Shown here: positions 6,687 through 53,138 of the stretch, in pieces
How the letters are laid out: each line of letters opens with the position of its first letter
Numbering within the stretch: position 1 is the stretch's first letter
Assembly: GCA_965201145.1 (NCBI GenBank)
Contig: CBDAVT010000001.1
Location: 70,889-134,888, forward strand
Direction of reading: 5' to 3'
DNA length: 64,000 nt
Source: Dehalococcoidia bacterium
Lineage (GTDB): Bacteria > Chloroflexota > Dehalococcoidia > Lucifugimonadales > UBA3495
The notes under the pieces: generated by a model
The model's database searches: none
What the model saw: only the letters and a program-made list of their open reading frames with translations
What the model was told of the DNA's origin: nothing
Translations under genes and position numbers: made by a program

Positions 6687-8884
6687 ATGGAAAAGTTTCC
6701 CAAATTCACCAACTTGTGGCCCCGGCTGCTGGGCATCGGGGTCCTGGCTTTAGCCCTGCTGCTCTTTTCTACTGTTGCGGTGGCAAACGTCACCCTGGCT
6801 CAGGACGGGGGCGGAACGCAGGAAGAAGAGGAGGCGCCCACCTGTCCGGTGGAGGGAGGCAGCCTGGAATGTGACCGGCAAGCCCTCATCGCCTTTTATA
6901 ATGCGACCGACGGCGATAATTGATGCAACAACGAAGGGTGGAAGGACGATGAAGGCAACTTCAACCCAATCGACAAGTGGCACTGGAATACCGTTTCTTT
7001 CAACAGTCGCGACCGGGTTGACTGGATCAACATGGCGAATGGTCAAGGCTGTGATTCCAAGACCGGGAACAACCTGAACGGTACCCTGATCGACGAGTTA
7101 GGCTGGCTGAATAACGTAAAAACTTTCCACGTTTACGGCAACCCGAAGCTGACCGGCTCGCTCCCGGTAGGAATGAGCAGCATGGGCGCCATGGGGAATA
7201 TGTCTCTGCAGCATAACGGTCTCAGCGGCAGCATTCCCGAGAAATGGAGTGATATGCAGTGGTTGCATGAAATCGAACTCTTTAATATGGGATTGACCGG
7301 CGCTTGGCCCTCGGAATGGGACGATCTGCATCAATTGTGGGTACTCAAAGTTCACGGGAATCAATTGACCGGCAACCCCTTCAGCGAAGACCACGTGATG
7401 GATAATCTGTTTCTAGTGCAGGTCCATGCCAACAAATTCAGCGGCGAGATGCCCAATTGGCTGGGCAAGAAAGCTGCCAACGGCGAACTTTATATGCTTC
7501 ACTGGTACAGCAATGACGGCTTGTGCGCGCCCGATAACACCGACTAGCGCACCGCCCTGCTTCAACCGAAGTGGAAGATAAACGGCCCGATGTGCCCGCT
7601 GCCGGGTGTCGCCCAATCCGGCACCTCCAAGCCATCGGAAACCAAGACGGTTACCACCAAATGGCCCGACGAGACGGCTTTGGAGGTCGTTCTTTCCGTG
7701 TCCACGGACAAGAAGCCTACTTATGACCACGCCGACACCCAGACTAAAAATCCCGGCGTTACTATTACCGCGGCGCCGGAGCTTTCCGACATCGGCAAAT
7801 ATGGCGGAACCCGCACCCTCACCTTTTCCCGCACCGGACACAAGGACATCAAGGTTCACTGGCGCACCTCGGGAGAGTACGACACCACTGACAAGTACGG
7901 AATTTCCATTTCCATCGAAGACTTGAACCTTGCGCCGGATCCGACGCCGACGCCCACGGGTACGCCCACGCCGACAGCTACGGCCACACCGACGCCGACG
8001 GATACGCCAACGGCTACGGCTACTGCTACGCCGGCCCCGACAGACACCCCAACGCCGGCCCCAACGGATACACCCACGCCTACGGCGACCTCAACGCCGG
8101 CCCCAACGGATACGCCCACTCCCACCTCGGCGCCGAATAATCCGGCGGAGTTGATTAGCCCCTTCAGCGACATCGAGTTGTATCATGGCGCTACCAGCGA
8201 CCTGGATATGACCAGCCACTTCAGCGGCGACGGTCTGTCCTACGAAGTGATGGTTACTACCACCCACCAGGGTACCGGCGCGGTGAAGACGGGACTGCTG
8301 AACCAGGTGGCCGTCACAAGGTCACCGGTACCTGGAGCGGAAGCGTCCTGACCCTGCTCGGGGGCCCGGCGGCGCTGCAGGAGTTGACCCTGAAAATCAC
8401 CGCCACCGACCAGAACGGCGGCTCCGCCAGCGACTCCTTTACCCTGGCCCTGGTTGCCGAGCCAACGCCTACCCCGGCGCCGACGTCCACGCCACCGCCG
8501 ACAAGCACACCGACGTCCACACCGCCGCCAACGAGCACACCGACGTCCACTCCGAGTAACCCGGTAAACTTGATTAAGGCTTTCGAAGACATCGAGCTGT
8601 CCGAGGATGACACTAGCCAACTGGATATGACCGACCACTTCAGCGGCAGCTCCCTGACCTATGAGGTGATGGTGACCACGACGCACCAGCGTACCGGGGA
8701 GGTAAGGAGCGGCCTCATCAACACGGTGGCCCGGAACAAGGTCTCCGGCAGTTGGAGCGGCCAGGTTCTGACCCTGACCGGCGGCCCGGCCGTATCCCAG
8801 AATTTGACCATCAAGATAACCGCATCCAACGCTAATGGAAACTCGGCCAGCGACGAGTTCACTATGGCCCTGGACAACGACTAA
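6687..8884 (+). pseudogene. secreted LRR / PT-linker / tandem Ig(cadherin)-like-domain surface protein, disrupted
   Basis: One frame runs 6687-8351 with in-frame TGA (6921-6923) and TAG (7545-7547). A 1-nt loss in a C-run near 8311 shifts into the frame ending at 8884. It has a signal peptide, LRRs (NxLxGxxP), Pro/Thr linkers and two ~105-aa C-terminal domains. Confidence 0.75.
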
Positions 8885-8940
8885 CCGCGCCGAAGCGACT
8901 GCCCCCGGCGGCGCTAAACCGGAAGCCAGCATAGCCAGAA

Positions 8941-8973
8941 GGGTCTATCCCCGGATGTTCCGGGGATAGACCC
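8941..8973 (+). terminator. perfect 14-bp-stem hairpin 3' of the disrupted surface-protein gene
   Basis: GGGTCTATCCCCGG-ATGTT-CCGGGGATAGACCC followed by TTTCC. It may act as a terminator or belong to the local repeat array. Confidence 0.45.
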
Positions 8974-9044
8974 TTTCCATTTGTCAGCACCTTGGTTGGA
9001 ACTGGCGGGACCCGGGCGGCCAGACGGCCCAACCATTCCGGCAT

Positions 9045-9346
9045 CCCTCCTTCTCTCTCAGGGAGAGGGGCCGAGGGTGAGGGCTGTACTGGGGATAGAC
9101 CCTTCTACTTGTCAGCACCTTCCTTCGCAAGGTAGGAAACTGGCGGCCAGCACCCCAACCATCCCAACATCCCCCCGCTCCCCCAGGGAGAGGGGCCGGG
9201 GGTGAGGGCCAGCGGGCGACTCAACAACCATCCCAATACCTCCCCGCTCCCCCAGGGAGAGGGGCCGGGGGTGAGGGCCAGCGGGCGACTCAACAACCAT
9301 CCCAATACCTCCCCGCTCCCCCAGGGAGAGGGGCCGGGGGTGAGGG
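9045..9346 (+). repeat. array of four REP-like elements, including a 69-bp tandem repeat
   Basis: Cores end at 9083, 9208, 9277 and 9346. The 69-bp unit CCAGCGGGCGACTCAACAACCATCCCAATACC...GGTGAGGG is repeated from about 9209. The array lies between convergent genes. Confidence 0.85.
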
Positions 9347-9367
9347 CCAGCGGCCGGGCAAAAAAAT

Positions 9368-9402
9368 ACAGTCCCGCCGGGTAAGTAACCCGGCGGGACT
9401 GT
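9368..9402 (-). terminator. rho-independent terminator of the FN3 surface-protein gene
   Basis: 14-bp perfect stem (ACAGTCCCGCCGGG / CCCGGCGGGACTGT) with a 7-nt loop. A T-run follows on the minus strand (A7 at 9360-9366 on plus). Confidence 0.7.
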
Positions 9403-9435: not shown

Positions 9436-11697
9436 TCAACCGGAGTTGTCCAGGGTAAATGTGAACTCGTCGCTGGCCTCCCCGCCGTACTGGTCGGTGG
9501 CGGTGATTTCGACGGTCAGCTCCTGGGAGGCTGCCGGGCCGCCAGTCAAGGTCAGGACGCTGCCATTCCACTCACCGGACACCTTGTTGCGGGCCACCGT
9601 GTTGATGAGCCCGCTCTTGACCACCCCGGTAATCTGGTGCGTCGTCGTCACCATCACCTCATAAGTCAGACCGTCGCCGCTGAAATGGGCCGCCATATCC
9701 AGGTTGACGGTCTCACCTCCCGACAGTTCAACATCGTCGAAGTCGCTGATCAGCTCCGCCGGGTTCTGCGGCGTCGGCTCCGGGGTGGGTTCCGGGGTCG
9801 GGGTCGGCGTCGCCGTCGGTTCCGGCGTCGGCATTAGCGTAGGCACTGGTGTTGGTTCCGGCGTCGGTGTGGACGTCGGTTCCGGGGTTGGCGTAATGGT
9901 CGGCTCCGGCGTCGGCATTAGCGTAGGCACTGGTGTTGGTTCCGGCGTCGGCTCCGGGGTGGGTTCCGGCGTCGCCGTCGGCTCCGGCGTCGGTGTGGAC
10001 GTCGGTTCCGGGGTTGGCGTAGTGGTCGGCGTCGGTGTGGACGTCGGCTCCGGCGTCGCCGTCGGCTCCGGTGTTGGTACGGTTGTAGGTTCCGGCGTCG
10101 CCGTTGGCGTCGCCGTCGGCTCTGGCGTTGGTACGGTTGTAGGTTCCGGCGTCGCCGTTGGCGCGGTCGTCGGGGCCGGCGTTGGCGTGCTGGTGGGACC
10201 CGGCTTTGGCGTTGGCGGCGGCAGAGGCGCGGCAACCAGCGTCAGCAGGAAGGAGTCGCTGACCAGGCTCCCGGATTCGTCGGTGGCGATAATCTTCAGA
10301 GTCAGTTCCTGCAACGGAGCCGGCCCTCCCTTAAGGGTCAACGTCGCGTCATTCCAGGAACCCGTTACCTTGTTGGTAGCTATCGTATTGAGCGCGTCGG
10401 TCTTCACCTCTCCGGTTCGCTGGTGCGTCGTCGTTACTATCGCCTTGTAGGTCAGCCCGTCGCCGCTGAAATGCTCCGTCATATCCAGTTCGATAGTTTC
10501 GCCGTCATAGAGCTCAATATCGTCAAACTCGGCGATGAGTTTCAGGGTAGGCGCCTGAGGCGTGCCGACGATGGTGTTGGACCAGTCGCCGCCGGGCTGC
10601 CCCGCCGCCAGCATACGCACCCGGAAGGAGTAGGCCATGCCGTTGGTCAACCCATCAATGGAAGTTTCCATGCTTTGCACGGTCTGCGAACCGCCGTCAG
10701 CCCAGGTCTCACCTTCCACCGTGTACCCCACTTCGTAAACCGTTGGAGGCGCCGGCGCAGGAGCCGTTGGAGCCGGCGCATTATTACTGCTGGCGAAGCT
10801 ACGAATGTTGGCGGCCGCACTCTTCAGGGACACCAGGCTCTTGAGGGAAGCGCCCTCGCCCTCGGCTCCGCTCTCTTCAGGCGCTTCCCAGGACAGCGTA
10901 ACCTTGCCGTTGCCCGGAGCAATACCCAGCCCGGTAGGGGGCGCGCCGAAGCCGACCAGATTTGGGGAAACCGTATTAGAGCTGGCAGCCCAGTAATCCG
11001 TCCCGTCGCAGCGCGCGCCGACTTCCACGTCATAGGCGGCGCCGCTGGTCAACCCATCGATTGTGTGCGGGGAAGTGGCAGCGTCGATTGTCGTCCACGA
11101 GGACGAGCCGGATTCCCGGTAGCGCACCTTATGCTGCGCCGCGCCGCCGACATCGGTCCAGGTGACCGTCAGCTCGCCCGCATTCGAGCCCGTCGCCACG
11201 GACACGCCGGTAGGCTGCGCCGACTTGCCGGTCGTTCCCTCGATGAAGTTGGAGTACCCGGTCAAATTCTTGCCGCCAACCGAAGAGATGCCGCCAAGGA
11301 TGATGAGATACTTCGTGTTAGGCGCCAGATTTGTCATGTCGTCCGGGCTGGTAGGCGAGAAATTTTGCCCGGTCTCAATCAAGCCCAGTTCGTCGATCAC
11401 GTGTGCACTAATATCGGTCAGGGTCTTGCCCGCAGGATTTGTCCAGCTGACTTCGAAACCGCACGCGTAGGTGTTTGCGATCTGGATACTCTCCGGGCCT
11501 GGGGCCGGGGTGATCAAATGGCTCGCCGCCCACACGTAATACTGGCTGCCGTCTGCTGCGGTCAAGCTTGCCGAACCGATCTGCACCTGGTAGTTGGTTC
11601 CATTGATCAAGCCGGTCGCCCGGTAGTTGTCGATACTCGACGTGGTCACAATTGTCCAGGCGCCGTCTTTCGCAGTGGTGTCTATACGGTAGCGCAC
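9436..11697 (-). CDS. giant FN3-repeat surface protein, C-terminal part (frame-shifted continuation of 11682..13916)
   Basis: The 753-aa ORF holds FN3 repeats (Y.VRYR...W...T), an Ig/cadherin-like domain, a ~155-aa PT(E) linker and a second Ig-like domain. Upstream of the annotated start the frame still reads [19 protein letters not shown], which is the middle of an FN3 repeat. Confidence 0.85.
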
Positions 11698-13916
11698 TGC
11701 GCTTTCAGCGAAGCCCTTGCCGGGGGTCCAGCGCGCATTGAACCGCCGTCGGTGTGGAAGAGAATCACATCCGTCGGCTTCCCGAAGGGCTTGCCGTCCA
11801 CTGGTCCCTCGATCTTTGGAGACTGCCGCCCGGCGACGGAGTACACCCGCACCTCGTAATCGATGCCGTTTTCCAGATTATTGATGTACAGGTCGATTTC
11901 CGGGCTGATTTCGTATGTGATCCACTCCTGCGTGTTCTTCTTTCGATACTGAACCGTGCTGCGCAGGGTCCCGCTGCCGTGTTTGTAACTGACGTACAGA
12001 CGGCCATCGCGGGGCTCGACGATTAGGCCCGTCGGCGCATTGAAGGGCGTCACCAAAATCTTGTCGGGCGTCCAGTGCGTTTCTATCGGCGGGCCGTTGT
12101 ACACTGCGGCGACATCGATCCAGTACGTCGTTCCGTTGGTCAGACCGGTGATCGTATAGGTCTGCTCAGTCCCGGCAGCCGGGGCGACCGTCGCTGTACG
12201 AGGGGTGTTGGTGGGGGCGCTCTCGTGATTCCACCAGCGCACCGTGTAGGAGTTCACCGTATCCGTGCTCTCCGGACTCTGCCATTTCAGCACAATTTCG
12301 GCATCTCCCGACACGCCGCGCAGGTTTCGGGGAGATTTTGCCGTGGCTGCCGATACCGTAATAACCTCGGAGCCGCGGTGATAATCAGCCGGCGGCTCTG
12401 AGTCGGCATCTCTGAACAGAGCAAACACCCGAACTTCATGGTTCTCGTTGGGCAGCAAATCACCTATTTCGAACATCAATCGATCGGCATTGCCGGCAAC
12501 CGGCTTCGCTTCTGTGCCCACTGACGTCCATGGCTCTGGGTTGTCCGGGTCATCCGCTATCTCTCGAATGATCAATTTGTAGCCATCGGCGTCATCTACC
12601 TTGTCCCAGGACACCGTAAGGTCTGCCGTCTCAGCGTCCGAAGTGGCTGCGATCAGCGACGCTGTGATTTCGGTAGGAGCCGGCGCGACCTGGAAATCAG
12701 GGCCATCGACCCAGCGCGTCGTCCCAGCGCGGACAGCGCCTACCTGCAGTTCATATTCATCGAGTACCGACAGCCCTTCCAGCTCATACGGGGTCGATCC
12801 GTAAGCTTGCCGCCATGCGCCGTTCGAGGACTTCAGGCGATACCTGATTGTATGGCTTGTGACGCCATCGCCTTTAGTCCAGCGCACGGTCAACTTGCCG
12901 TTGTCGGCTTGTGTTGTTATGTCCTCGAGCTGCACATTCGCGGGCTTCCCCAGCGGCGTCCCGATACGCGGACTTGTCCACAGGATTTCGCCGTTGAGCA
13001 TAGCGCCGACTTGTACCTGATACGTGGTGCCGTTGCTCAAACCTTCGATGTAGTGCCGCCGGCTGACGTCTTCGATTCTGATGTTTTCAAAGATTCCCCC
13101 CAGAGGGCGGTATTCGAGGACGTGGGACACCAATTCACCGGGCGCATTGGTCCAATAGACCTTCAATTTGCGGTCGGCGGAGACCACATCAAGGCCGCTC
13201 GGCGGCTCGAAGGGTATCGCTTCTATCTGCTCGGACCAGTGGGTCATTGCCGGGGTGGGCGGCGACGCGCTCGTATCTTCGTCGAACACCGCGCCCACCT
13301 GCACGGCATGAGTAAGGTGATTGTCCAGGACGGACAGCGTGTCGCGGCTGCTCATCGCCTGGCCCTCCGCATTGGGCTTCCACTCAAAGGGATTTTCCGG
13401 CGCCGACTGGCGGTACCGCACCACATACGAATCGGCGTTGGTCACGGCGGTCCAGCTCACCCGCAGGCTGCCGGAGCTGTTGGGAGTAACGGTGACGCCG
13501 GTGGGAGCATTAGGCGAAAGGGGAGTGGCATAGGTCGTCCCCACAATCTCCCCGCCATTCACAAAGGCACGGACCGTTATCTTGTACGTCCGTCCGTTGA
13601 CGAGAGAGGAAATAGTATGTGGCATCGTGAGGGTATCCACCGGGTTTTCCGGGAGATGGGTGACCGAGCCGTCTATCGTATCGGTATAGGTGATGCCGTA
13701 GCGGGTTTCGCTGGTCCCTTTCGGCCAGCTCCAGTTTACTTCGAGGGCAGTATCACCCGGGGTAGCGGTGACCGCGGACTGCTCCTGGGGGTGCGCCTGC
13801 CGGGACCAGGAAAGGAGCACCGTCTCCAGATGCCCGGCCAACAGCGCCGTAGGCACCATCGCAGTTGCCAGAACCGCCAGGATCAACCAGGAACGCAGCC
13901 TGTTTCTCATATCCAA
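11682..13916 (-). CDS. giant FN3-repeat surface protein, N-terminal part with signal peptide
   Basis: 744-aa ORF with GGAGG 9 nt upstream of the ATG and an N-terminal signal/TM segment. It carries at least 7 FN3-like repeats. It ends in out-of-frame sequence after a 1-nt loss in a T-run near 11741. Confidence 0.85.
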
Positions 13917-19959: not shown

Positions 19960-20793
19960 TTAAGTGACCAGCCGGGCGTTCCGGGGGCGCTTCTTGCCGC
20001 CGTGCACCGACGGTTCGGCGCACCATTTCTCCGCCAGCCGCCGCACTCCCAGATAGACTTCCCGGTCAAAACCCAGCAGGTCGCAAAGCACCATCCGGTC
20101 CAGCAAAGCCCGATTTGGATCGGCATCGGCCAGGTAAGCCGGCTGCAACTCCTTATCCCGGAATTCTTCAAAGATTATCTGCGCTGTTTCCAACTGCGAA
20201 TCGGACAGGGTTCGGAAATCGAGGACCGGGAGGGTGTCTATCGCGCTGATGGTCGTTCTTCCTCTACCGTCTTGCTGCCGGTTGGAGTGCCACCACCAAG
20301 ACAATAAACCCAATGTAGAATTACTCCATACCGTAAAGGCGTAGTCTTGCCGCCCATCAGCAAAGCTGACGTTAGGCCAAGCTGTACCACCAATGGACTT
20401 CTTTTCGGTAAAGCAGGCAGCCAGTGGCTGGGAATTGAATCGGAAATCCCGATTTACGTGAGCGCGGCTGGCCGTTTCCCAAACCTCGGCGGCTCTCGCC
20501 TCCATTCCCGGTCTGACCAACAGTTGGGAGTCCGACTCGCAGATTAGCCGAGTCTCTTGCTTGGCATCGTGGTTCCATAAACACGGATAGGTGGCGGTGG
20601 GACTGGGGGTGGACTTGGTGAAGGGGGCTGGGTGGGGCGGCCCTAATATCAGGCGGTCAACCAGACCGCGCTGGCCAATTGTTTGGAGGGCAGCTATCTG
20701 GAGCGGAAGGGGGTTGAGTTGGGTGGGCAACCAGAGTTTGGATTGGGTCAGGGCGTAAGCGGTTTGGGCTACTGCGCCGTCCCGGAAGCGCAC
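19960..20793 (-). CDS. type IIG-like restriction-modification enzyme, C-terminal (target-recognition-like) part
   Basis: It is in the same frame as 20818..22860, separated only by TAG plus 8 sense codons, with no RBS of its own. WSNSTLGLLSWWW...LPVLDF resembles TaqI-like C-terminal specificity domains of Eco57I-family methylases. Confidence 0.65.
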   Translation of the reverse strand: MRFRDGAVAQTAYALTQSKLWLPTQLNPLPLQIAALQTIGQRGLVDRLILGPPHPAPFTKSTPSPTATYPCLWNHDAKQETRLICESDSQLLVRPGMEARAAEVWETASRAHVNRDFRFNSQPLAACFTEKKSIGGTAWPNVSFADGRQDYAFTVWSNSTLGLLSWWWHSNRQQDGRGRTTISAIDTLPVLDFRTLSDSQLETAQIIFEEFRDKELQPAYLADADPNRALLDRMVLCDLLGFDREVYLGVRRLAEKWCAEPSVHGGKKRPRNARLVT

Positions 20794-20817
20794 GGCGCCC
20801 CAGGACGGCGCAAATCC

Positions 20818-22860
20818 CTACGGGATTTGCGCCGTCGCGATTTCGCCCATTTGTTCTAATCCAATCTGCAACGGAGTGGCGCCATAAGGACCTTCCTCAA
20901 TGTTCCGTACCGATGCAGCTACCGCAGCGCTTCGAGCCAACTCTCGAGCCTGAATTCCCCCTTGCGGCCGGCTGGTCAGCGAAGTAAATCGTCCTGTAGT
21001 TGACACATTGCTCTGTCCCGGAGCGTTACGGCGCTTTCGGGCAATTACCAGACACTCCGCCATACCCGTATCTGAGGAGAAGGACATATCCTTGCCATTG
21101 GCCGCAATACTTAAAACTTCCAGGCCCTCATAGTCAGCAGCCAATAGTTGCCGGAACTTGGCCCAGGAAGTTCCGGCGGATACCGACAGGGGCAGGACAA
21201 AGGCTAACACCCCGCCGGGCTTGAGCTTGCGGTGGGCCAGAGCGGTAAAAGCCGAGGCCGTCCCGGCCTTGCCGTCGTAACAACTTTTTTGGCCCAAGTC
21301 TCGCATCCGTTTGCCCATATCATCCATATCGGCTTTGGTAGCCCCAAAAGCGGCAAAGGCCGGATTAACCACGTTGGAGTGCACACCTCCGTGGTTGGTG
21401 GCCCGAGTAAAAGGCGGGTTCATAATCACCAGGTCAAATCCTGCGTCGGGGACTTCCACCAGCACCTGGGCGGCAGTTTCCTCGCCGGCGCTGCCGGTAC
21501 GCAAGGCTGGGTCGGTGGTGTTAAACAAAGTCATCGCCGCCGAGGACTGGAGCAGTTCCAGCGAGCCGATTTTGACGCTGCCGTCCTCCTGCCGGCCGTA
21601 GGGCATAGTGTAGATGTGGGATTGGCCGAAGGACTCATTAGGCTGAATGCCGGAGAGGGTAGCGGCGGTGATATGCACCGCCGAAGGCATCACGTCGCAG
21701 CCATACAGGACTTCCTCCAGCATTGCCCGGTGCAGCTTTGCCGGGTCGCCGCCGCCGGCCTGCTCGTGGCGGGCGGCAATCTGCTCATAGACCGCCGACA
21801 GCAGCGCGCCGGTACCGCAGGCAAAGTCGCCCACCCGCAGCTTTCCGATGGCTTCTTTATCGGCCCAATCCACCTCTTCCAGCTTGGCTACGGCCAGCCG
21901 GGCCAGCTGCGCCGCCGAGGCCGGCAAAGTGTAAAAGGTAGCCAGATACTTGCGGTCGGCAATCAGCCGTTGAAACACCCGTCCGGTCAAGTCGTGAGCG
22001 TTGGTTACACCTCCCTCCTCCACCGATTGAGCGGTGGCGCGCAGAACACTGAGGATCCGGGCCGCTGCGCCGGAGGGCAATTGCATCAGGATGTCTTTAG
22101 CCAGGATGAAGATCGGGTAATAGTTAATCTCGAGAATCTCGTTCCAGGCGCCGAGGATGGCAACCTGGGCCGTAGGTTCCGTCAGCCGGTGCAAAGACTT
22201 GATTTCCGGGTGCATACCGGCGATGCGCTCGTGAAAGATCAGGGCGTTGGCGATTATGGCACCAGCCATTTTGCGGGTTTGGGGAACATCGGGCATCCCC
22301 AGCAAGCTGGCAATGGCGGCCGGCACCTCGGACTCACGTTTTGCCATCTCATCCAGCACCGCGGCGGCCCGGTCTATGCCACCCTGCAAGGACTCGGCGG
22401 CCCGCTCCACTTCCCGCTGCGGCAGGGAAACCAGGCGGATAAGGTCGGACAGGTCGGCCGCGCTGCCGTGGAGCCAGCCGGCGGTGGGGAATCGGGCGCC
22501 ATCCTCGTAGCAGATACAGTATTCCAGACGGGCGGCTTGCAGCGCATCAGACAGATTAGACGCTTCGGGAATTTCCGCCGGGTAGCGCAGGGCAATGGCT
22601 GCCTCGATGGGGCGGTTCTCCCCGGTTACGCTCAGCCCCAGGCGGGATTGGGCCTCCGCCTCGGCAGTGACGGCCGGCAAGTATTCCGCCTCCACCACCA
22701 CTGGCGAGCGGCCCGGGGCGGTTACCAGGATGTCCGGCTGCCGACCGGCGTATCCCGCAAAGACTCGAGTACTCTCGGTGATTACTTCCGCCCGGCCCAG
22801 CATATCACCGAGCAGGGAGCCTAAAACATAGTTGGCGCTGGGTTCCGAATGGCGCGGCAT
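20818..22860 (-). CDS. type IIG-like restriction-modification enzyme, N-terminal nuclease-like plus N6-adenine methyltransferase part
   Basis: 680-aa ORF. It has a possible PD-(D/E)xK region (PDILV...VVVEAEY), SAM motif I (VGDFACGTGALL) and catalytic motif IV (NPPF). Confidence 0.8.
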   Translation of the reverse strand: MPRHSEPSANYVLGSLLGDMLGRAEVITESTRVFAGYAGRQPDILVTAPGRSPVVVEAEYLPAVTAEAEAQSRLGLSVTGENRPIEAAIALRYPAEIPEASNLSDALQAARLEYCICYEDGARFPTAGWLHGSAADLSDLIRLVSLPQREVERAAESLQGGIDRAAAVLDEMAKRESEVPAAIASLLGMPDVPQTRKMAGAIIANALIFHERIAGMHPEIKSLHRLTEPTAQVAILGAWNEILEINYYPIFILAKDILMQLPSGAAARILSVLRATAQSVEEGGVTNAHDLTGRVFQRLIADRKYLATFYTLPASAAQLARLAVAKLEEVDWADKEAIGKLRVGDFACGTGALLSAVYEQIAARHEQAGGGDPAKLHRAMLEEVLYGCDVMPSAVHITAATLSGIQPNESFGQSHIYTMPYGRQEDGSVKIGSLELLQSSAAMTLFNTTDPALRTGSAGEETAAQVLVEVPDAGFDLVIMNPPFTRATNHGGVHSNVVNPAFAAFGATKADMDDMGKRMRDLGQKSCYDGKAGTASAFTALAHRKLKPGGVLAFVLPLSVSAGTSWAKFRQLLAADYEGLEVLSIAANGKDMSFSSDTGMAECLVIARKRRNAPGQSNVSTTGRFTSLTSRPQGGIQARELARSAAVAASVRNIEEGPYGATPLQIGLEQMGEIATAQIP

Positions 22861-23690: not shown

Positions 23691-25187
23691 TTACAAGGCT
23701 CGCAACTCAGCCAAGGCATCCTGAAGCTCCCGGTTATTTTTCTCGATCAAGTCAAGAATCTCCGACGGGGTCCTGGTGTCAACAATTTCCTTGCGGTTGG
23801 GGTTGACCGCCTTCAGGTCATAATTCTTTGCCTCTATTTCCTCCCGAGTGACGGTCCAACTATTTTCACTGTCTTCGCGACCAGGCAGCAGCCTAAAGAA
23901 GTCGTCAAAATGGGCTCGAGTCAGGGGATTCCCCTTGTTGACTTTCAGGTAGGAAAGGTCGTAGTACCAGACCTGCTCAGTTTTCTTGCCCTTGTTGAAG
24001 AAGAGCAAATTGGTTTTTACCCCGGCGCCGGCCTGAGTGAAAACTCCCCCGGGCAAGCTGACAATGCAGTAGAGGTCACATTCGTCCAGCAACCAACGCT
24101 TGGTCTGAACAAAAGCGTTTTCATTAGTTCTGAAAAGCAGTCCCTCGTCAACTACTATCCCGGCCCGTCCGCCGAACTTCAGGCTGTTTATTACTTCCTG
24201 CAGGAAAAGTATCTGGGTAGAGGAGGTCTTATAAGTATATTTTACCCGGGCTTCGCTCCCTTCTTTACTTCCAAAGGGCGGATTCATCATTATCACGTCG
24301 AAGATGTTAGGCGCGCCCTGGTACAATCCCCCGTAGATTTCGTTATCGGTCAGAGTGTTGCCGTGCCAAATATTGGGCCGGTTTATGCCATTCAGCATCA
24401 GATTGGCCAGAACAATGGGAGAGAGCAGGTTCTCTTTTTCCTTACCGTAGAAGGTTTCGGTAGCCAATTGTGCCAATTGCTCGCCGGTAGCGTTGAGACC
24501 CAAGCCGTCTCTCATAAAGTGATACGATTGAGCCAGGAATCCCCCGGTGCCACAGGCGGGATCGAAGACCGTCTCACCCAATCGGGGCTTGACGGTTTCT
24601 ACAATTACCTTAATTACATCTCGTGGAGTGAAGAACTGCCCACCATCGTTGTTCTTCTCTCCCATCTTGAGGAGAAGCCCTTCGTAGGCGTGAGAAAGAG
24701 TGGAATTCTGGGTTATCTCTGCACCGGACAGTTTTATAGAGCTAACGGCATCCAAGACATCCAGAAATTTACGCTCAGTATCGACTTGGACCCGCTCTAC
24801 AATGGACAATATTTCGCCGATAACTTTCTGCCTGACTGTAGCGTCATCCCTTTCCCTAAGGACTCGTAGCCGTGGGAGCAGTTCGTTGTTTACGAAATTG
24901 AACAATTCGCCAAGAGAGCCGGCTTCCAGTTCCTGTCGTTTCTGGCCTTCTTTCGACGCCCAGTCTTGCCAGCGGTAGGGGTATCGCAGAGAAGGACTGA
25001 AGGCGCGGCCCAGTATTTCCGATTCCTCTGCTTCCAGCGCTTCTTGCTGGTCCAGAATATTCAAAAAGAGAAGCCAGGTCAGTTCAGGAATGTACTTCAT
25101 GGCCCCGGCACAGTTAGAGCGCCGCAAGATGTCGCAAATACCCTTAATCTGTGCCGCTATGGACACTGGCGCAGTTGAGGTAGTCAT
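23691..25187 (-). CDS. hsdM: type I restriction-modification system methyltransferase subunit
   Basis: HsdM N-terminal domain (LTWLLFLNILD), motif I (FDPACGTGGFL) and motif IV (NPPFG) are present. The ATG overlaps the hsdS stop (TGATG). Confidence 0.92.
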   Translation of the reverse strand: MTTSTAPVSIAAQIKGICDILRRSNCAGAMKYIPELTWLLFLNILDQQEALEAEESEILGRAFSPSLRYPYRWQDWASKEGQKRQELEAGSLGELFNFVNNELLPRLRVLRERDDATVRQKVIGEILSIVERVQVDTERKFLDVLDAVSSIKLSGAEITQNSTLSHAYEGLLLKMGEKNNDGGQFFTPRDVIKVIVETVKPRLGETVFDPACGTGGFLAQSYHFMRDGLGLNATGEQLAQLATETFYGKEKENLLSPIVLANLMLNGINRPNIWHGNTLTDNEIYGGLYQGAPNIFDVIMMNPPFGSKEGSEARVKYTYKTSSTQILFLQEVINSLKFGGRAGIVVDEGLLFRTNENAFVQTKRWLLDECDLYCIVSLPGGVFTQAGAGVKTNLLFFNKGKKTEQVWYYDLSYLKVNKGNPLTRAHFDDFFRLLPGREDSENSWTVTREEIEAKNYDLKAVNPNRKEIVDTRTPSEILDLIEKNNRELQDALAELRAL

Positions 25188-26377
25188 CAAAAATCTCCCG
25201 AAAAGGCTTGCCGCAACAATATTGACCGCAGGACTTCCAAGTCCCCAATTTGATGATGAGCCAGCATTTCAATCTCCCCAACAGTGGCCGCCTTGCGGTC
25301 CAGATTGGCTACAATACGCTGCTGCTCGGCCAGAGGTGCGAGGGGTATCATAAATGACTTTAGTTGTTTGCCGGTTATGGCATCAAATGTGCTGCCTGAC
25401 CCTTTTTCTGCTATGCTATCTTCAAGGAAACGAAGAGCGACAAGCAAGAAATCCTTATCGACATCGCCACTACACTTTATCGCGGCCAGTCCTCGACCGA
25501 TGCAACACTTTTCCACTGCAACGTTAGTAGGACCAACCGGCGCCCTTACAGAAATCAACACATCTCCCGGATCAGCAATTTTTTGGGGTGATATGCACCA
25601 AGCTGTGACCGTCGGATTGTATTCACCAAAGTCTGCTTTCCCTTGAAAAAATGGAAGCCCTTCCGGCTGGTTTCTGTAAGTGGAACTTGGTGGTGATTGT
25701 CCAAGAATTATTTGGCATACCTCCCCCAGCTTAACCCACTTCCAGCCCTGCGGGAGCTGCTGCCCTAAAGAGGGCAGCAGCTCCCGCGTGATCGCGCTTT
25801 TAGAGAACTAATGTTCGCAATTGCTTCTTCAGCAGCCCGTCGAGCTTTATCCACTAACGCCATTTGCTGGTCCAGCCTGGCTACAATACGCTGCTGCTCG
25901 GCCAGGGGTGGGAGGGGGATGGCTAAATTTGACATTGACCTAAAATTCAAAGTCCTGCCCTTTACAGCATGTCCTAAGACACCTTCATAGTCTATTACAG
26001 GCAATAGGTGCTTTAAGAATTCTTTGTCAGTTCGGCTTTCGTCAATCGGTATTAGACCTGCAATCGCTTCGTTGGTGTAGAGATCACAACCTGCAATAGC
26101 TGTCTTGCCGATAGTCAGCTTAAAGCTAAAGATAAGTGTTCCCTCTTCAAGTAGCCTTTGTTTGCACAGATCGGCACCTTCATCCGAGAGCATTTCTTTT
26201 GTATCTATTATGACATTGGACTTCATATCAGAAATGGTCACCCATGGGTGGTCGCCACCCCAATATTCCAATTTGTTTCTACTAGGTGTTCGCCCTATCA
26301 CAATCCGACAAACATCCCCCAGCTTAACCCCACTTCCAGCCGGGAGGCAGGGGTTTGTTGGTATCGGGCAAGGTCAT
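25187..26377 (-). pseudogene. hsdS: type I R-M specificity subunit, two frameshifts
   Basis: MTLPDTNKPLPPGWKW, then an extra G in the run at 26328-26331. TRD1 and LPPLAEQQRIV follow, then an A missing from the run at 25798-25801. After that come LPQGWKWVKLGEV, TRD2 and LAPLAEQQRIV...AFSGDF. The track ORFs 25765..26301 and 25187..25561 are fragments of this gene. Confidence 0.85.
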
Positions 26378-27450: not shown

Positions 27451-29298
27451 TCACGCCGAAAACATCCTCCGCTTGGTTTCGGTCATAGCCTCTGCCGGGT
27501 TTCCGAACTCCCACAAGGAAGCGACGCCGCCGGCTAGAGTTACCTCAGGGGTCTGGAATATTTGCGGACTTTCCAAACCTTCCGTGCCGCCCCTGGTGAA
27601 CTGGGAAGTAATGGCTTGGATGACTGCTGCCGTTGCCGCCGGCAGATTATTGAGCCAATCCCGGTTCTTATAAGCAAAGGCTTCGGCTCGGGCTTCCCTG
27701 GTTTTTGCCGCCTGCCCATAGGCCAGGTCAGCCAGCACATCGAACAGGTCGCAGTCTTCCATATCGGAAAACTCCCGAATCAAGTTAGCGCCGGCCTCGG
27801 GCAGATTTTCCAGCACTTCGCGCCGCGCCGCGGGCTGGATCCAGGCAGCCCGAAACTGGTCCAACACCGGTATATCCGCCACCAGACGGGCAGCCAGCCG
27901 CTGTTTATACTCTTCCAGCGTAACCATTACCTGCTGTCCGGCAGCGTCCATTTCCGTGATATAAGCGCCGGCCGAAGATATGCGAACGTCGAACCCGTGG
28001 GCCACTACCAGAGTTTCCGGCTCACGGGGAGAAGTACCATCAGCATCGGTGTCTGAATTACCTTCGGGCCGGAAAGCCTGGATGAAGTCTTCGGCAAATA
28101 GTCGGGTAGCATTAGTGTAGTCATACACTCGGAAGGAGAGCTTGTTGATACGTTCGTCAATCCGGGTGCCTCTGCCCACCATCTGGTAAAAGGCGATGGG
28201 AGAGCTGACGTACTTAAAGAACACTATATTCACCACCGGAGGGACATCCACTCCGGTGGTCAGCAAGTCAACGGTGGTGGCAATAAAGTAGCGCTGGCTG
28301 CTGCTCTTAAAGTCGGCAATCAGACCCTGGCCCTCACTGGCCGCAGTGCACTTGAAGGCATAGCTCTCAACCCTGGTTTGACCATTGGCCTGACACCATT
28401 GGGTATATAGATTGTTCATTTCATTAGCTACGGCGTCGGCATGCTGGTCGCGGATGCAAAAGATAATGGTTTTCTGATGGGGAGTTATTTCGTCCTGCAC
28501 CAAATGGTTGAACAAGTCCTGACACATAGCTTCTATACGGTCCGGGAGCATGAGCCTGGCCTCAAAGCTTTGGGCATTATAATGCTCCCTGACTACCTGC
28601 GGCTCCACCGCTTGGCCGGTAAGTTGATCCGTAAGGGCCTTATTCTCCAAATCGGCACGGTCAACGCCGGTGACACTTTCCGGGGCCGGCTGATCATCAA
28701 GAAATACATCCCGTTTGATTATTTCCATAGCCGCCAGGTAACCGTCTTCTATGCCACGGCCGATGGAGTACTCGTAAATCGGTTCACCAAAATATTTGTA
28801 GTTGTCGTTAGTTATCCGTTGGTCTTCCCTGCTCTCCGGCGTGGGTTTGACATAGTGAAAGGTTCGCGGGGTTGCCGTAAGACCGATTTGCACCGCATTG
28901 GGATTGCGGCGCAAAACATCGTGCCACTTACCCCAGGCAGAGCGGTGGCACTCGTCAATTATGATATGGCTGAAGTAATCAAAGGGATAGTTGGCGGTCA
29001 GGAATGAATCATTAGCATCATCTCGATCTACACCAAGGGTCTGGTAAGTGGCAATGATGATGCGGGCGTTCTTTTGCGGGTTGCCCGCGCTGGCCGCCGC
29101 CGCATTATTGCCAAACTCATTGCTGAAAGCGCTTAATCCCTGGGTCCGCAGCTCATCCCGGTCACACAAGAACAATGCTTTGCGAAGCTGGCCGGCGTCA
29201 GCAATCCGCTTCAGCAGGTTCACCGCAATAAAGGTCTTGCCCGAACCGGTAGCTAAACTGATTAAGGCGCGGTTTTCGCCACGAGCTATCTTTTCCAA
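27451..29298 (-). CDS. hsdR: type I restriction enzyme R subunit, helicase and C-terminal part
   Basis: Walker A ATGSGKT, DEAH box (IIIDECHRS), helicase C motifs and an EcoEI_R_C-like tail are present. Upstream the frame continues as RYYQDAAIRAVLEKIA. Confidence 0.88.
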   Translation of the reverse strand: MEKIARGENRALISLATGSGKTFIAVNLLKRIADAGQLRKALFLCDRDELRTQGLSAFSNEFGNNAAAASAGNPQKNARIIIATYQTLGVDRDDANDSFLTANYPFDYFSHIIIDECHRSAWGKWHDVLRRNPNAVQIGLTATPRTFHYVKPTPESREDQRITNDNYKYFGEPIYEYSIGRGIEDGYLAAMEIIKRDVFLDDQPAPESVTGVDRADLENKALTDQLTGQAVEPQVVREHYNAQSFEARLMLPDRIEAMCQDLFNHLVQDEITPHQKTIIFCIRDQHADAVANEMNNLYTQWCQANGQTRVESYAFKCTAASEGQGLIADFKSSSQRYFIATTVDLLTTGVDVPPVVNIVFFKYVSSPIAFYQMVGRGTRIDERINKLSFRVYDYTNATRLFAEDFIQAFRPEGNSDTDADGTSPREPETLVVAHGFDVRISSAGAYITEMDAAGQQVMVTLEEYKQRLAARLVADIPVLDQFRAAWIQPAARREVLENLPEAGANLIREFSDMEDCDLFDVLADLAYGQAAKTREARAEAFAYKNRDWLNNLPAATAAVIQAITSQFTRGGTEGLESPQIFQTPEVTLAGGVASLWEFGNPAEAMTETKRRMFSA

Positions 29299-32430: not shown

Positions 32431-32437
32431 ACGCTAT

Positions 32438-33997: not shown

Positions 33998-34424
33998 CTA
34001 ACGTTGGGAACTCTGGAAGATGGCCTCTCGCAGTCCGTCCAGTAGCCCGTCCAAATGGGCCAGACGCTCCCGCATTGCCGCCAGTTCCCCGTCGTGGCTG
34101 TCCATCCTGGATTCCAGCTTGTCAAAACGCAAGTCCTGTCGCCGTTCCAGCACGGTTATCCGCTGATCCATCCTGGTTTCCAGCACGGTTCATCCGCTCA
34201 TCCATTCGGGCTTCAAAAGCGTCGAAGCGCTCATCCATTCGGGCTTCAAAGGCGTCGAGGCGCTGGTCCATCCAAACTTCAAAAGCGTCGAAGCGATGGG
34301 CAGTCCGGCTTTCGGCGTTGTCAATACGCTGACCCAAACGATGGGTGGTAGTCAGCATCAGGGCCACCAACACACCGAAGGCAGTAATTCCCGCACCAAG
34401 AACTGCGATCATATCCGGCGACAT
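33998..34424 (-). pseudogene. membrane-anchored coiled-coil repeat protein, one frameshift
   Basis: An N-terminal TM helix is followed by 11-aa repeats R[FL]DAFEARMDE. The 34122..34424 frame shifts into the 33998..34186 frame at an extra A (plus-strand TT at 34189-34190). Confidence 0.55.
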
Positions 34425-50747: not shown

Positions 50748-50793
50748 TTGGGGTCTGTCGCCCTTGCCTTCCAGCCGGGCCGCGTGGGCCGGG

Positions 50794-52545
50794 CTAGTTC
50801 TTCAGGGACAGGGTGAAGGAGCCACTGGCTTCCTCCCCAGCCGCGTTGCTGGCGATTATCTGGATGGTCAGATCCTGGGAGGCTGCCTTGCCACCCTCCA
50901 ACGTCAGCACCGACCCGTTCCAGCTTCCCGACACCTTGTTGCGGGCAATCTCACCCAGCTTGCCGGTCTTCTGCCTCCCGGTCTTCTGGTGGGTGGTGGT
51001 TACCATCACTTCGTAGGTCAGGTTGTCGCCGCTGAAGTGATTAGCCATGTCCAGGTCGCTGGTCTCCCCCTGGCTGAGTTCGATGTCCCCGAAGGGGTTG
51101 CTCAGCGCTGGCCTTTCCGGCGCGGGTTCCGGAGTAGGTTCCGGCGTGGGCTCGGGAGTCGGCTCCGGAGTGGGTTCCGGGGTCGGCTCCGGCGTCGGTT
51201 CCGGGGTAGGTTCCGGGGTCGGCGCCGCCGTGCCGCCCACGGTCAGTTGGAAGGAGTCGCTGGCCGATTCGCCGGCGCCATCGGTGGCGATGACTTCCAC
51301 CTGCAGGACGTGGTCGCCCTTAGCCCCGGCGGTCAGGGTCAGGACTTCGCCGTCCCACTCGCCCCGCACCTTGTTCCGAGCCACCTCGTTCAGGTTCCCA
51401 ATCTTCACCACCCCGGTCCGCTTGTGGGTAGTAGTTACCTTCACCTGGTAGGTCAGCCCCTCGCCGCTGAAATGCTCCGCCATGTCCAGGGACTGCTCTC
51501 CGCTATTCTCCAGGGTCAGGTCGGCGAACTCCTGAATCAACTCCGTCGGTTCGGTCAGCCCGAACACCTGCCCCACCGGGTAATGGTTCAGCCGGATCGA
51601 GAATCCCCGCCGGTCGTCCCAGACCCCGTACAGGGTCTGCATCCCGTACCCTTCCCGGTAGAACATCATTTTGGCCCGATGTTCCCAGACATTGCCGCCC
51701 GTGCTGTAGGCCGCGTCCGAATGGGCGCTGATGCTGGCCGGGTCCACCGTGACCTTGCCATCGGCATAGGTCAGGGTCATCGAAACTTCCCCACCGGCCC
51801 AGTCATAACTCAAGGTCTCGGTAGTGGGCTTGTAGTCAATCTCGTAGTAGATGCCGTAGTCGGCATCGTAGTACCAGTTCAGGGTCATGCCGTTCTGACC
51901 CGGCCGGTGGAACTCCAGCGACCGCCAGTTCTCGTACCGGTCCAGCCAGCCGCTGTCGTGGTACTCTACCGTCGTTTCCGCCGCTACCGCGCTGTCGTGG
52001 GTCAGGTTGTTGTAGGTCAGCTTGTTGTCGTCGTCCAGGTGCAGGTCCACGTTGATGTGCTTCCCGTCGCTCCACTCCAGCAAGGCGCTGGTGGACGTGA
52101 TGGGCGTGTCCGTCTGGGAAGTGGGCGGGTTCGGGTTCCGCTGCTCATCGCAGTACAGGCCCCAGTGGATGTTCCAGGTGCACTCGAAGAGGGCGTCCCC
52201 GTAGCCCGGCCGCTCGAACCGGATGTAGTTGAAGGTCGTCGCTCCGTTGCGGTGCACCCGGTACCGGAAGGTGGCTTCCGTGTCTTCCCCGTGGCTGATG
52301 CTCTGCGAGGCCAGCTCCGAATGCCGCATCCCATCGTGGTAGAACCGGAAGGAGAACTCCTCCCCATCGCCCCACTGGCCAGTTACCGTCTTGTTGGCAT
52401 CCTGCCGCTGAATCTGGTAGTACAGTCCCGCTTCCGTGTCGTAGTACACCGTCAGGTAGATGGGTCGTAGTTCCCCTGGTCGTACTGCTTCTTCACCACG
52501 ATGGTCTCGAAGGTCGAGTCCTCCATGTAGGAGAAGAACACCCAC
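50794..52545 (-). CDS. secreted repeat protein, C-terminal part (W-x-D-G repeat modules, Ig-like domain, PTE linker, Ig-like domain)
   Basis: 583-aa ORF. Its first ~27 residues are out-of-frame read-through. The true frame joins 52452..53138 at a 1-nt loss in a C-run (plus-strand GGG at 52462-52464). Confidence 0.85.
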   Translation of the reverse strand: MGVLLLHGGLDLRDHRGEEAVRPGELRPIYLTVYYDTEAGLYYQIQRQDANKTVTGQWGDGEEFSFRFYHDGMRHSELASQSISHGEDTEATFRYRVHRNGATTFNYIRFERPGYGDALFECTWNIHWGLYCDEQRNPNPPTSQTDTPITSTSALLEWSDGKHINVDLHLDDDNKLTYNNLTHDSAVAAETTVEYHDSGWLDRYENWRSLEFHRPGQNGMTLNWYYDADYGIYYEIDYKPTTETLSYDWAGGEVSMTLTYADGKVTVDPASISAHSDAAYSTGGNVWEHRAKMMFYREGYGMQTLYGVWDDRRGFSIRLNHYPVGQVFGLTEPTELIQEFADLTLENSGEQSLDMAEHFSGEGLTYQVKVTTTHKRTGVVKIGNLNEVARNKVRGEWDGEVLTLTAGAKGDHVLQVEVIATDGAGESASDSFQLTVGGTAAPTPEPTPEPTPEPTPEPTPEPTPEPTPEPTPEPAPERPALSNPFGDIELSQGETSDLDMANHFSGDNLTYEVMVTTTHQKTGRQKTGKLGEIARNKVSGSWNGSVLTLEGGKAASQDLTIQIIASNAAGEEASGSFTLSLKN

Positions 52546-53138
52546 TGAATCCGCGCGCTGGTGTTCCGAATCGACTCCCGGGCCGCGTCCACGTCAATCT
52601 CCGGGTTCCCGTTCTGCTGGGACACCGGCACCACCAGCTTGGTCCCTTCCAGCCATTCCAGGTCCAGCTCAATCACCGCCGATTCCTGGGGGCCCTTCAC
52701 GCCCGCCGGCGGGTCCGGGTTCCGGTAGGCCACGTAGTTCCGCTGTTCCGGGTAGCCGGCCCACCACTTGATCCACATATCGCCGAAACCGGCCCGCCGG
52801 AAGGTCATGCTCTTCTGGTCGAAATCGCAGCAGTAATCGGCGATCTTGACCGTGGTGTCTGCCCCGTGGACCAGACTGTCCGGGTCATAGGTGGGTTTGC
52901 CGTCCACCCGGGTCAGGGTCACGGAAACTTCCTCGCCGTCGCTCCACTGCAGGGCCACCGTTTCGGTGAGGTCCGATTCGGAGGCGGCGCCGATGGCGGA
53001 GTCCAGGGTCGTGGTGGTCGTGGGGGTGGCGTCGGCCCGGGCCGGGCTGGCGAAGGCCAGGCCGAAGAGGAGGGCCAAAGCGAGGAGGGCGCCGGCGATG
53101 CTGGCCGGGATGAGCCCTTTGCGGTTGAGGTGCAACAT
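52452..53138 (-). CDS. secreted repeat protein, N-terminal part with signal peptide
   Basis: 228-aa ORF with a signal peptide (ALLALALLFGLAFASPARA), then W-x-D-G...F-R-R-x-G-F-G repeat modules. Confidence 0.8.
   Translation of the reverse strand: MLHLNRKGLIPASIAGALLALALLFGLAFASPARADATPTTTTTLDSAIGAASESDLTETVALQWSDGEEVSVTLTRVDGKPTYDPDSLVHGADTTVKIADYCCDFDQKSMTFRRAGFGDMWIKWWAGYPEQRNYVAYRNPDPPAGVKGPQESAVIELDLEWLEGTKLVVPVSQQNGNPEIDVDAARESIRNTSARIQWVFFSYMEDSTFETIVVKKQYDQGNYDPST

Follow-up and report, generated by a model that had tools for sequence, protein, structure and literature searches.

A stretch of 64,000 nt from a Dehalococcoidia genome (hereafter the window, whose coordinates are used throughout) contains ten interruptions of open reading frames. 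Do these breaks record the decay of accessory genes, or are they consensus errors of the assembly? All ten are present in the DNA, as the original prediction held, and each falls in a frame that is uninterrupted in homologues. We consider that the ten breaks are real features of a marine or sponge-associated Dehalococcoidia population, a life style that is itself presumed; nine of them would reflect decay and the tenth, TAG 20818, a flip-type change centred on a palindrome. The probability of this reading as a whole is put at roughly 0.75.

The interrupted genes

The genes concerned, together with the intact hsdM, are as follows.

6687..8884, plus strand: LRR/cadherin-like secreted protein pseudogene; TGA at 6921-6923, TAG at 7545-7547 and a 1-nt deficit in the CC run 8311-8312
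9436..13916, minus strand: gene for an FN3-rich giant surface protein; 1-nt deficit at 11741-11742, within one FN3 module
19960..22860, minus strand: Eco57I-type N6-adenine methyltransferase-domain gene (family length about 967 aa); a single in-frame TAG at 20818-20820
23691..25190, minus strand: hsdM, intact
25187..26377, minus strand: hsdS; 1-nt excess in a G4 run (plus-strand CCCC 26328-26331) and 1-nt deficit in an A4 run (plus-strand TTTT 25798-25801)
27451..29822, minus strand: hsdR of the EcoAI/FtnUII family; 1-nt deficit at about 29328-29333
33998..34424, minus strand: gene for a small membrane-anchored coiled-coil repeat protein; 1-nt excess at 34189-34190
50794..53138, minus strand: W-x-D-G/cadherin-like secreted protein gene; 1-nt deficit in a C3 run (plus-strand GGG 52462-52464)

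The sites had been correctly located, except for the hsdR shift. This had been placed at 29351-29352, a position that is excluded because a TGA in the downstream frame (29341-29343) intervenes. Of the seven frameshifts, five lack one nucleotide and two have one too many. The claim that all of these indels lie in homopolymers is a weak one, since the runs are only 2-4 nt long, four of them being 2-nt runs, and the shift positions are fixed only within a few codons. At none of the seven does a tract reach the length (about 7 units or more) that marks the ON/OFF site of a simple-sequence-repeat contingency locus.

Assembly error or real DNA

As an independent check, we used the Logan reference-free k-mer assemblies of other SRA runs, whose samples possibly overlap those of the MAG. 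Contigs from runs SRR33960550-54 and SRR33991074-99 match the window at 99.9-100% identity with zero gaps over positions 687-8231, 10447-13953, 18681-40983 and 51421-53363. Their few mismatches to the window show that they are not copies of the MAG. They reproduce nine of the ten lesions, the exception being that at 8311, which no independent contig covers, and they carry the same truncated ORFs. For the LRR gene, at least 8 runs are identical over 687-8231 and both stops are found in at least 22 contigs. The 742-aa truncated product of the FN3 gene occurs in 5 contigs, with 100% identity over 10447-13953. The methyltransferase gene is represented by the same 680-aa and 277-aa ORFs, hsdR by 176-aa and 615-aa ORFs in contigs from several runs, and the coiled-coil gene by 100-aa and 57-aa ORFs from two runs. 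A contig passes without gaps across both frameshift sites of hsdS, and others span the W-x-D-G lesion (51421-53363) in the same manner.

Errors of consensus or polishing in a long-read MAG, such as homopolymer miscalls or faults in strain-variable or repeated regions, might have been suspected: the assembly consists of 3 contigs, the indels are located in short runs, and several of the broken genes are repetitive. However, because nine of the ten lesions recur base for base and gap-free in assemblies of other runs, this reading is effectively excluded and we reject it. Three of the lesions are substitutions, and the essential genes are all spared. Moreover, long intact ORFs keep their frame across 3,108 5-nt runs and 445 longer ones (6 nt or more).

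Sparing of core genes

The original prediction stated that core genes are untouched, and indeed comparison with Pfam models shows full-length haem, aro, rny, transporter and other genes in the window. If lesions were placed uniformly over the roughly 56 kb of coding DNA, the chance that all ten fall within a portion of about 16 kb would be about 4e-6 by rough arithmetic. Two parts of the claim need amendment. The coiled-coil gene is not clearly accessory because it is conserved in synteny across the genus, the orthologues in relatives being uninterrupted. The restriction to surface and defence genes fails genome-wide, where peripheral enzymes and solute-binding proteins are also broken.

A genome-wide scan yielded 58 distinct candidate frameshifts. 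In six of them, a single Pfam match extends across the junction (CocE/NonD, GSDH, MBL, M19 dipeptidase, DUF502 and SGL lactonase), and in a seventh, a TPP enzyme, the match to the N-terminal domain ends at the junction. Genes for SBP, a Mod methylase, a capsid protein and cas2 are also broken, as judged from peptides read by eye. By the same reading, the scan found no essential gene broken, and the affected genes are dispensable. This pattern fits fixed pseudogenes filtered by selection. By a rough estimate, a few percent of the genes are affected, a load that is not extreme. A 183-bp MITE is also present in about 180 copies.

It appears that the lesions are confined to accessory genes because purifying selection preserves the core, and nine of them would be ordinary inactivating mutations fixed in dispensable genes. 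Loss of the LRR gene would have involved two Trp-to-stop transitions and one 1-nt indel, that of the FN3, W-x-D-G and coiled-coil genes one 1-nt indel each, and that of the type I restriction system three 1-nt indels in hsdS and hsdR. The LRR gene and the type I system have three lesions each, which fits neutral decay after a first break. The predicted decay of accessory functions thus holds for nine lesions, but not for TAG 20818, a recurrent, palindrome-centred stop common to many diverged homologues.

Surface-protein genes

TGA 6921 occupies the position of an LRR N-cap Trp that is invariant in 12 paralogues of the same genome. TAG 7545 falls within the LRR C-cap, at a position that is Trp in a 67%-identical homologue. 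No recorded intact allele of the LRR gene reaches 90% identity. Selenocysteine at TGA 6921 was considered and rejected, the homologous residue in the 12 paralogues being Trp and not Cys or Sec. The 65 nt from this codon, inspected for a SECIS-like hairpin, fold no better than shuffled sequence (z = -1.16).

The W-x-D-G gene exists in five near-identical copies at dispersed sites, and its frameshift is common to all five; it probably spread to them, or was inherited by them, via duplication or gene conversion. Another paralogue reads through the site of the shift. All eight members of the family are broken, by four independent lesion types. This is odd, and awkward for simple neutral decay, when many other large surface genes are intact.

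Two other explanations bear on these genes. Loss of W-x-D-G and other surface proteins could be adaptive, for instance under host or phage selection, and not the result of drift. The breakage of all eight paralogues, the many intact LRR and cadherin-like genes and the nearly orphan status of the family (8 matches among 1.84 billion representative proteins) point in this direction. However, five of the eight copies represent a single event, and gene conversion plus drift could yield an identical picture, so that we regard adaptive loss as quite unlikely. Programmed recoding, that is, frameshifting in the five-copy gene and selenocysteine insertion or read-through at the stops, might be thought to explain why an identical frameshift is kept in five copies. 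It is, in our opinion, barely credible. By eye, no canonical slippery heptamer (X XXY YYZ) occurs in the stretch shown around the W-x-D-G shift, and the paralogues break at other sites by other types of lesion. In the LRR gene, TGA 6921 replaces an invariant Trp with no significant hairpin downstream (z = -1.2, rounded) and is accompanied by two further lesions.

The type I restriction-modification system

hsdM, which matches PADLOC MTase_I at 1e-167, lies in one operon with an hsdS that encodes two target-recognition domains (TRDs), an arrangement that identifies a type I system. The hsdS halves match Specificity_I models and PRK09737. When its pieces are joined, hsdR aligns in one stretch to positions 2-754 of 768 of NF046051, with a score (474.6 bits) that is below the 550-bit equivalog cut-off, and also in one stretch to PDB 3h1t. 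It combines an HsdR N-terminal nuclease with a DEAD/ResIII helicase and matches the model end to end, as an EcoAI/FtnUII-like R-subunit of family IB does. A functional type I system calls for intact frames, and here hsdS has two frameshifts and hsdR one, all of them found in independent contigs. One hsdS frameshift lies exactly between the TRD1-CR1 and TRD2-CR2 halves and the other 16 codons from the start.

The hsdS gene also contains a hairpin.

25750..25787: perfect hairpin in hsdS; 17-bp arms and a 4-nt loop at 25767-25770

In Logan contigs of SRR33960553 and SRR33960554, the loop is reverse-complemented with respect to the MAG, which creates TAA in the hsdS frame. The alleles differ at four adjacent bases that are exact reverse complements, as expected of loop inversion. 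Here, in a gene neighbouring the methyltransferase gene, a loop flip is observed directly as a polymorphism. It is functionless now because hsdS carries two other frameshifts.

The stop codon in the methyltransferase gene

The methyltransferase gene had been labelled a type IIG enzyme. A Pfam Eco57I match is indeed seen (8.8e-8), but IIG identity is not established: PADLOC gives only weak matches to MTase_II and mad2 and none to REase_MTase_IIG. The best PDB match is a BREX-type methyltransferase (E = 0.005), and an N-terminal D...ExE motif is recognized by eye only. TAG 20818 is embedded in the following element.

20804..20836: perfect palindrome; 15-bp arms and a 3-nt loop, which the TAG spans

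If reverse-complemented, the loop would read as sense codons. Only the TAG orientation was found in the window and the Logan contigs; a read-through product is not on record, and neither is an intact allele of at least 90% identity. Homologous palindromes occur in L050, with TAG, and in L047, which reads sense and would acquire TAA if its loop were flipped. In three family members, the only stop in the examined stretch is centred in a perfect palindrome (arms of 15, 19 and 20 bp) whose flipped loop is sense. The arms diverge between lineages and the pairing stays perfect. Such a hairpin was found in none of 29 fused control loci, and no palindrome surrounds the stops of G321, G342 and L071.

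A stop at the column of TAG 20818 is seen in at least 19 diverged homologues. Split and fused forms are interleaved on the family tree, with at least 12 state changes and supported split/fused sister pairs. That the stop returns at this column in many lineages is better explained by a hot spot, a switch or a functional split than by decay. The TAG most likely arose by replication template switching or hairpin-loop inversion, and the palindrome-centred stop may be a hot spot for flip-type mutation or an on/off switch.

According to the stronger version of the latter model, the palindromes of the Eco57I-type gene and of hsdS are reversible switches, providing phase variation free of repeats and recombinases. 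Template switching during replication would flip a loop of 1-4 nt, whereby an in-frame stop is gained or lost. This would explain the 12 or more stop changes at one column as well as the two hsdS loop orientations among samples. The palindrome-centred stops with sense flips, the reciprocal state of L047, the perfect pairing of lineage-specific arms, the scatter of the 19 split forms among fused ones and the absence of the hairpin from the fused controls all agree with it. We nevertheless hold it to be possible rather than probable. Neither the window gene nor L050 has a recorded ON form, the hsdS flip has no present function, and three stops have no palindrome. Furthermore, the palindrome comparison leaves out the DNA of the other 17 split forms, and loop flips may be too rare to serve as a switch. 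Alternatively, the stop could delimit a functional two-subunit enzyme, with an N-terminal ORF of about 680 aa and a C-terminal ORF of about 280 aa restarted just downstream. A GTG start lies 8 codons past the stop, where the Logan gene caller places the 277-aa ORF. In the window gene as in L050, neither half has another lesion, and many split forms reside on Mb-scale contigs. However, the split forms are not one clade, so the split would have had to arise repeatedly at one codon, and we judge such an enzyme unlikely. Our preferred reading of TAG 20818 remains the palindrome flip.

Implications

The breaks in the window should be annotated as real pseudogenes and not 'corrected'. Look-ups of the exact products in independent assemblies can settle the choice between error and decay without read mapping. 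The stops at palindrome centres suggest that inversion of hairpin loops repeatedly silences restriction-modification genes in uncultured marine or sponge bacteria, and possibly re-activates them. If the flip could be reversed often enough to be of use, the known devices of phase variation would gain another mechanism.

Comparison with known systems

Pseudogenes accumulate in dispensable bacterial genes under relaxed selection, often together with mobile-element expansion, for example in early host restriction. The present genome resembles such cases in that frameshifts and nonsense mutations affect only non-essential genes, with several per dead gene, and in its many MITE copies. It differs in that the life style is here only presumed and the load is modest. 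In EcoDXXI and NgoAV, a half-size HsdS results from a frameshift between the two target-recognition domains. The hsdS of the window is likewise broken between its halves and accompanied by an intact hsdM. In contrast to these systems, it has a second frameshift near its start and a broken hsdR partner, so a working half-S system is unlikely.

Loop-only inversions, typically of 4-nt loops, occur at inverted repeats (PMC8794818). Template-switch mutation at such repeats, in which the arms are homogenised and the loop or spacer is inverted, is described in PMC8794818 and PMC8604942, and quasipalindrome mutagenesis in E. coli in PMC7202029. The maintenance of perfect arms despite divergence and the reverse-complemented 4-nt loop of hsdS are in keeping with this process. 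What sets the present case apart is that inversion adds or removes an in-frame stop within restriction-modification genes, and that, across the methyltransferase family, the stop appears again and again at one column. Phasevarions depend on length changes in simple sequence repeats or on recombinase-driven inversion of hsdS (PMC5909438, PMC7394358 and PMC4948785). The methyltransferase is similar in that its ON and OFF states are scattered among close relatives. Unlike the phasevarions, it involves no repeat tract of 7 nt or more, no duplicated hsdS and no recombinase, and the proposed toggle is a hairpin loop.

Inventory of the lesions

The ten lesions of the original prediction, of which three are in-frame stops and seven frameshifts, are borne out by translating both strands of the window; homology backs each break:

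6921, in-frame TGA, LRR surface gene
7545, in-frame TAG, LRR surface gene
8311-8312, 1-nt deficit, LRR surface gene
11741-11742, 1-nt deficit, FN3 gene
20818, in-frame TAG, Eco57I-type methyltransferase gene
25798-25801, 1-nt deficit, hsdS
26328-26331, 1-nt excess, hsdS
~29328-29333, 1-nt deficit, hsdR
34189-34190, 1-nt excess, coiled-coil gene
52462-52464, 1-nt deficit, W-x-D-G gene

The hsdR shift had been placed at 29351-2, which is impossible because a TGA of the downstream frame (29341-3) intervenes between that site and the continuation. The joined hsdR pieces give a single-stretch match to the EcoAI R-subunit model (positions 2-754 of 768) and to PDB 3h1t. hsdS is broken between GWKW and VKLGDV, and then again between its two halves. 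That core genes of the window are spared, as had also been claimed, is upheld by comparison with Pfam models: hemA, hemC, cobA-hemD, hemB, hemL, aroB and the shikimate kinase gene are full length, as are those for RNase Y, YmdB, PlsY, transporters, NiSOD and an amidase.

The source genome (59% G+C, 3.09 Mb in three contigs) has a core-gene nucleotide identity of ~72-84% to 16 same-genus genomes. A 183-185-bp MITE is present in it in ~180 copies (94-100% identity), four of them in the window:

13950-14136, MITE copy
15729-15929, MITE copy
61543-61725, MITE copy
63785-63969, MITE copy

Sequencing error or real DNA

The exact truncated products were looked up in a collection of independent, reference-free assemblies (Logan contigs, k-mer assemblies of other sequencing runs). 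The 78-aa and 171-aa fragments of the LRR gene occur in 39-40 blocks of this collection, and at least 22 contigs match window 687-8231 at 99.9-100% identity. Five contigs contain the 742-aa FN3 fragment, window 10447-13953 being 100% identical. A 31.7-kb contig of SRR33960553 (loci L023 and L028) spans window 18681-40983 with 7 mismatches and no gaps, and includes TAG 20818 together with the shifts of hsdS (both), hsdR and the coiled-coil gene. Shorter contigs from six other runs are concordant for hsdR, one of the six also spanning the coiled-coil shift, and the 228-aa W-x-D-G fragment is present in contigs of SRR33960554 and SRR33991092. Since the Logan assemblies are reference-free and differ from the source assembly (MAG) in a few places, they are not copies of it. 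The 8311 shift is the only lesion lacking a covering independent contig, because the contigs stop at 8231 in a Pro/Thr-rich repeat; ORFs 7590-8348 and 8384-8881 gave no exact product match in the independent assemblies.

Long intact ORFs hold frame across 3,108 homopolymers of 5 nt and 445 of at least 6 nt, and three of the lesions are substitutions. Together with the reproduction of nine lesions in independent assemblies, this excludes the proposed consensus error for those nine and makes it unlikely for the 8311 lesion. No shared sequence motif, such as a methylation-linked miscall would leave, was seen by eye around the three stops. These are genuine lesions, fixed in the populations that were sampled. 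Within hsdR, Logan contigs of three runs terminate in the same 20 nt (28966-28985), which suggests a strain-variable junction or an assembly-graph branch.

Surface, coiled-coil and W-x-D-G genes

TGA 6921 sits where 12 paralogues from the same genome have the invariant Trp of the LRR N-cap (GxNW). TAG 7545 lies within the LRR C-cap, where the closest homologue, the protein P0121 (67% identity), has Trp in an alignment that crosses the stop. Each of the two LRR stops thus derives from a Trp codon by a G-to-A change. Selenocysteine at TGA 6921 was considered and rejected, the homologous residue being an invariant Trp in the 12 paralogues. The alignment of P0121 (632 aa) begins at residue 133 of the window protein, its signal peptide and N-cap being absent; this orthologue may itself be 5'-truncated. 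The LRR gene has no close orthologue in the 16 same-genus genomes (best 38% identity), and no intact allele of at least 90% identity in the protein collection. In the FN3 gene the shift cuts through one FN3 module. Tandem ~69-nt units (97.7% identical) occupy 9099-9455 between the two genes, with a perfect hairpin at 9368-9402 in the last part of the array.

The same lesion had been proposed to be sought in orthologues. The only gene permitting this comparison is the coiled-coil gene, and its syntenic orthologues are continuous in three related genomes (G003, G009 and G013), many paralogues being intact as well.

Across the W-x-D-G frameshift, a paralogue runs on in a single frame and bridges the site. 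Four other copies, of 98.2-99.9% identity overall, and three further broken paralogues are present in the genome:

C2:861939-864168, W-x-D-G copy
C2:1505811-1508586, W-x-D-G copy
C2:1969216-1971491, W-x-D-G copy
C2:1993961-1996273, W-x-D-G copy
C1:174713, paralogue with a 1-nt deficit
C2:819340, paralogue with a 1-nt excess in a G6 run
near C2:1553956, paralogue with an in-frame stop (TAG)

The frameshift is common to all five copies, which differ at 4 columns over ~2 kb (alignment columns ~945-2930), and all eight members of the family are broken. The family is absent from the 16 same-genus genomes and has only 8 matches in 1.84 billion representative proteins. The simplest reading is that an already broken copy spread by duplication or gene conversion; the loss of the family may also have been adaptive. 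A programmed frameshift was rejected, as no canonical slippery heptamer was seen by eye near the shift site.

Lesions elsewhere in the genome

A codon-usage scan of the genome for same-strand frame switches returned 279 candidate pairs, 63 of them (58 distinct) high-scoring (score of at least 4). It caught four of the seven window shifts, so that genome-wide counts are lower bounds; the three frameshifts of the type I system (hsdS and hsdR) escaped it, as did every in-frame stop of the window. A single Pfam match spans the junction in six cases (CocE/NonD hydrolase, glucose/sorbosone dehydrogenase, MBL hydrolase, M19 dipeptidase, DUF502 and SMP-30 lactonase); in a seventh candidate, a TPP enzyme, the N-terminal domain match ends at the junction. 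Peptides read by eye add two family-5 solute-binding proteins, two Mod-type methylases, a phage capsid gene, cas2 and an exonuclease. All essential-gene candidates (tsf/pyrH, rplC/rplD, eno, ftsZ) were discarded as normal neighbouring gene pairs on reading the peptides. Thus the claim that only surface and defence genes are hit does not hold genome-wide, where peripheral enzymes are also broken, while the avoidance of essential genes does. Such a pattern is expected of real mutations under a selection filter, and for nine of the ten lesions we infer ordinary pseudogenisation.

Several other features emerged. Two paralogous N6_N4 (Mod-type) methylase genes (C2:326802 and C2:1187771) are each frameshifted in the same C-terminal region (..LASYLLHTA..). 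The genome holds 37 G or C homopolymers of at least 10 nt, none within long-ORF interiors. At C2:1122796 (+), an in-frame TGA in an apparent AhpD/CMD-type redox motif (..NRCRY*ASSH..), giving CxxU, is likely a selenocysteine codon and not a lesion.

The stop of the methyltransferase gene

TAG 20818 is unlike the other nine lesions, because it is the sole lesion in its frame (966 codons), occupies the loop of a palindrome and recurs in homologues. The palindrome (20804-20836) is perfect and has 15-bp arms; the stop falls within its 3-nt loop, and both codons are sense once the loop is reverse-complemented. Perfect hairpins with arms of at least 12 bp number 106 in the genome, only 5 of them within long open frames. 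By our own count, methylase or specificity genes hold three of the six long in-gene hairpins; one, at C2:561726-561760 (perfect, 15-bp arms, 5-nt loop), is inside a 974-aa ORF for an apparent DUF1156-type DNA methylase and, on our own reading, gives sense codons in either loop orientation. The type IIG label for the Eco57I-type gene is not established.

In the methyltransferase family, one alignment column repeatedly carries a stop. Split forms, which end there, comprise 19 cluster representatives whose ends fall a few residues at most from that column; over residues 440-680 of the window gene they show 61-72% identity to it, and most are on contigs of at least 0.4 Mb. In a maximum-likelihood tree of 169 sequences, built on the N-terminal 674 columns, split forms are mixed among fused forms, which read through, and well-supported split/fused sister pairs occur. 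The state changes 12 times on this tree; with shuffled labels the count averages 18.3 and never drops below 15. In a class sample, 7 of 97 matches carry a single stop in a 241-aa segment. One relative's chromosome has five copies of the Eco57I-type methyltransferase gene within 24 kb (G172:C1:1245784-1269909), and several other genomes have four or five.

Three family stops lie at palindrome centres: that of the window gene, that of L050 (protein P0294), where a 19-bp-arm palindrome is centred on the T of the TAG, its sole stop in 962 codons, and that of the distant member G360, where a 20-bp-arm palindrome in another variable linker has TAA at its centre and is sense with the loop flipped. 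At the protein position of the window stop, L047 (P0001, 70% identity) has a perfect palindrome with 21-22-bp arms, sense as it stands and TAA if the loop is flipped. The arms have diverged among the window gene, L047 and L050, and pairing is perfect in all three. A 52-nt perfect palindrome with 25-bp arms in L075 (OZ244064.1, locus 2654-2705), ~25 codons downstream of the recurrent stop site, is sense in both orientations. Elsewhere in the family, a hairpin of at least 7 bp is missing from the stop site in ~75 of 81 homologue loci, and nowhere in another 29 fused loci does a perfect inverted repeat exceed a 13-nt span. Two of the seven stop-bearing matches of the class sample (G321 and one G342 copy), and L071 from an earlier set, have a stop near the site without a palindrome.

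Origin of the palindrome-centred stop

TAG 20818 probably arose by template switching or by hairpin-loop inversion. The palindromes may be mere mutation hot spots. That they act as reversible switches is a tentative proposal: neither the window gene nor L050 has a recorded stop-free (ON) counterpart. The protein collection holds no intact allele of the methyltransferase gene of at least 90% identity, and the window palindrome, with any loop, had no match in a JGI metagenome scan. Less likely still, the palindromes would mark a predicted functional two-ORF form of the methyltransferase.

In hsdS, positions 25750-25787 form a perfect hairpin (17-bp arms) whose 4-nt loop exists in both orientations. 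Four adjacent bases distinguish the MAG from the contigs of SRR33960553 and SRR33960554 and are exact reverse complements of each other, the hsdS frame gaining a TAA in the orientation of the contigs. Logan assemblies are taken to use k = 31; a k-mer of this length joins the loop to unique flank, and by our own reasoning the flip is therefore probably not a graph artefact. Loop-only inversions by replication template switching, mostly of 4-nt loops, are documented (PMC8794818), and another study describes spacer inversion within coding DNA (PMC8604942).
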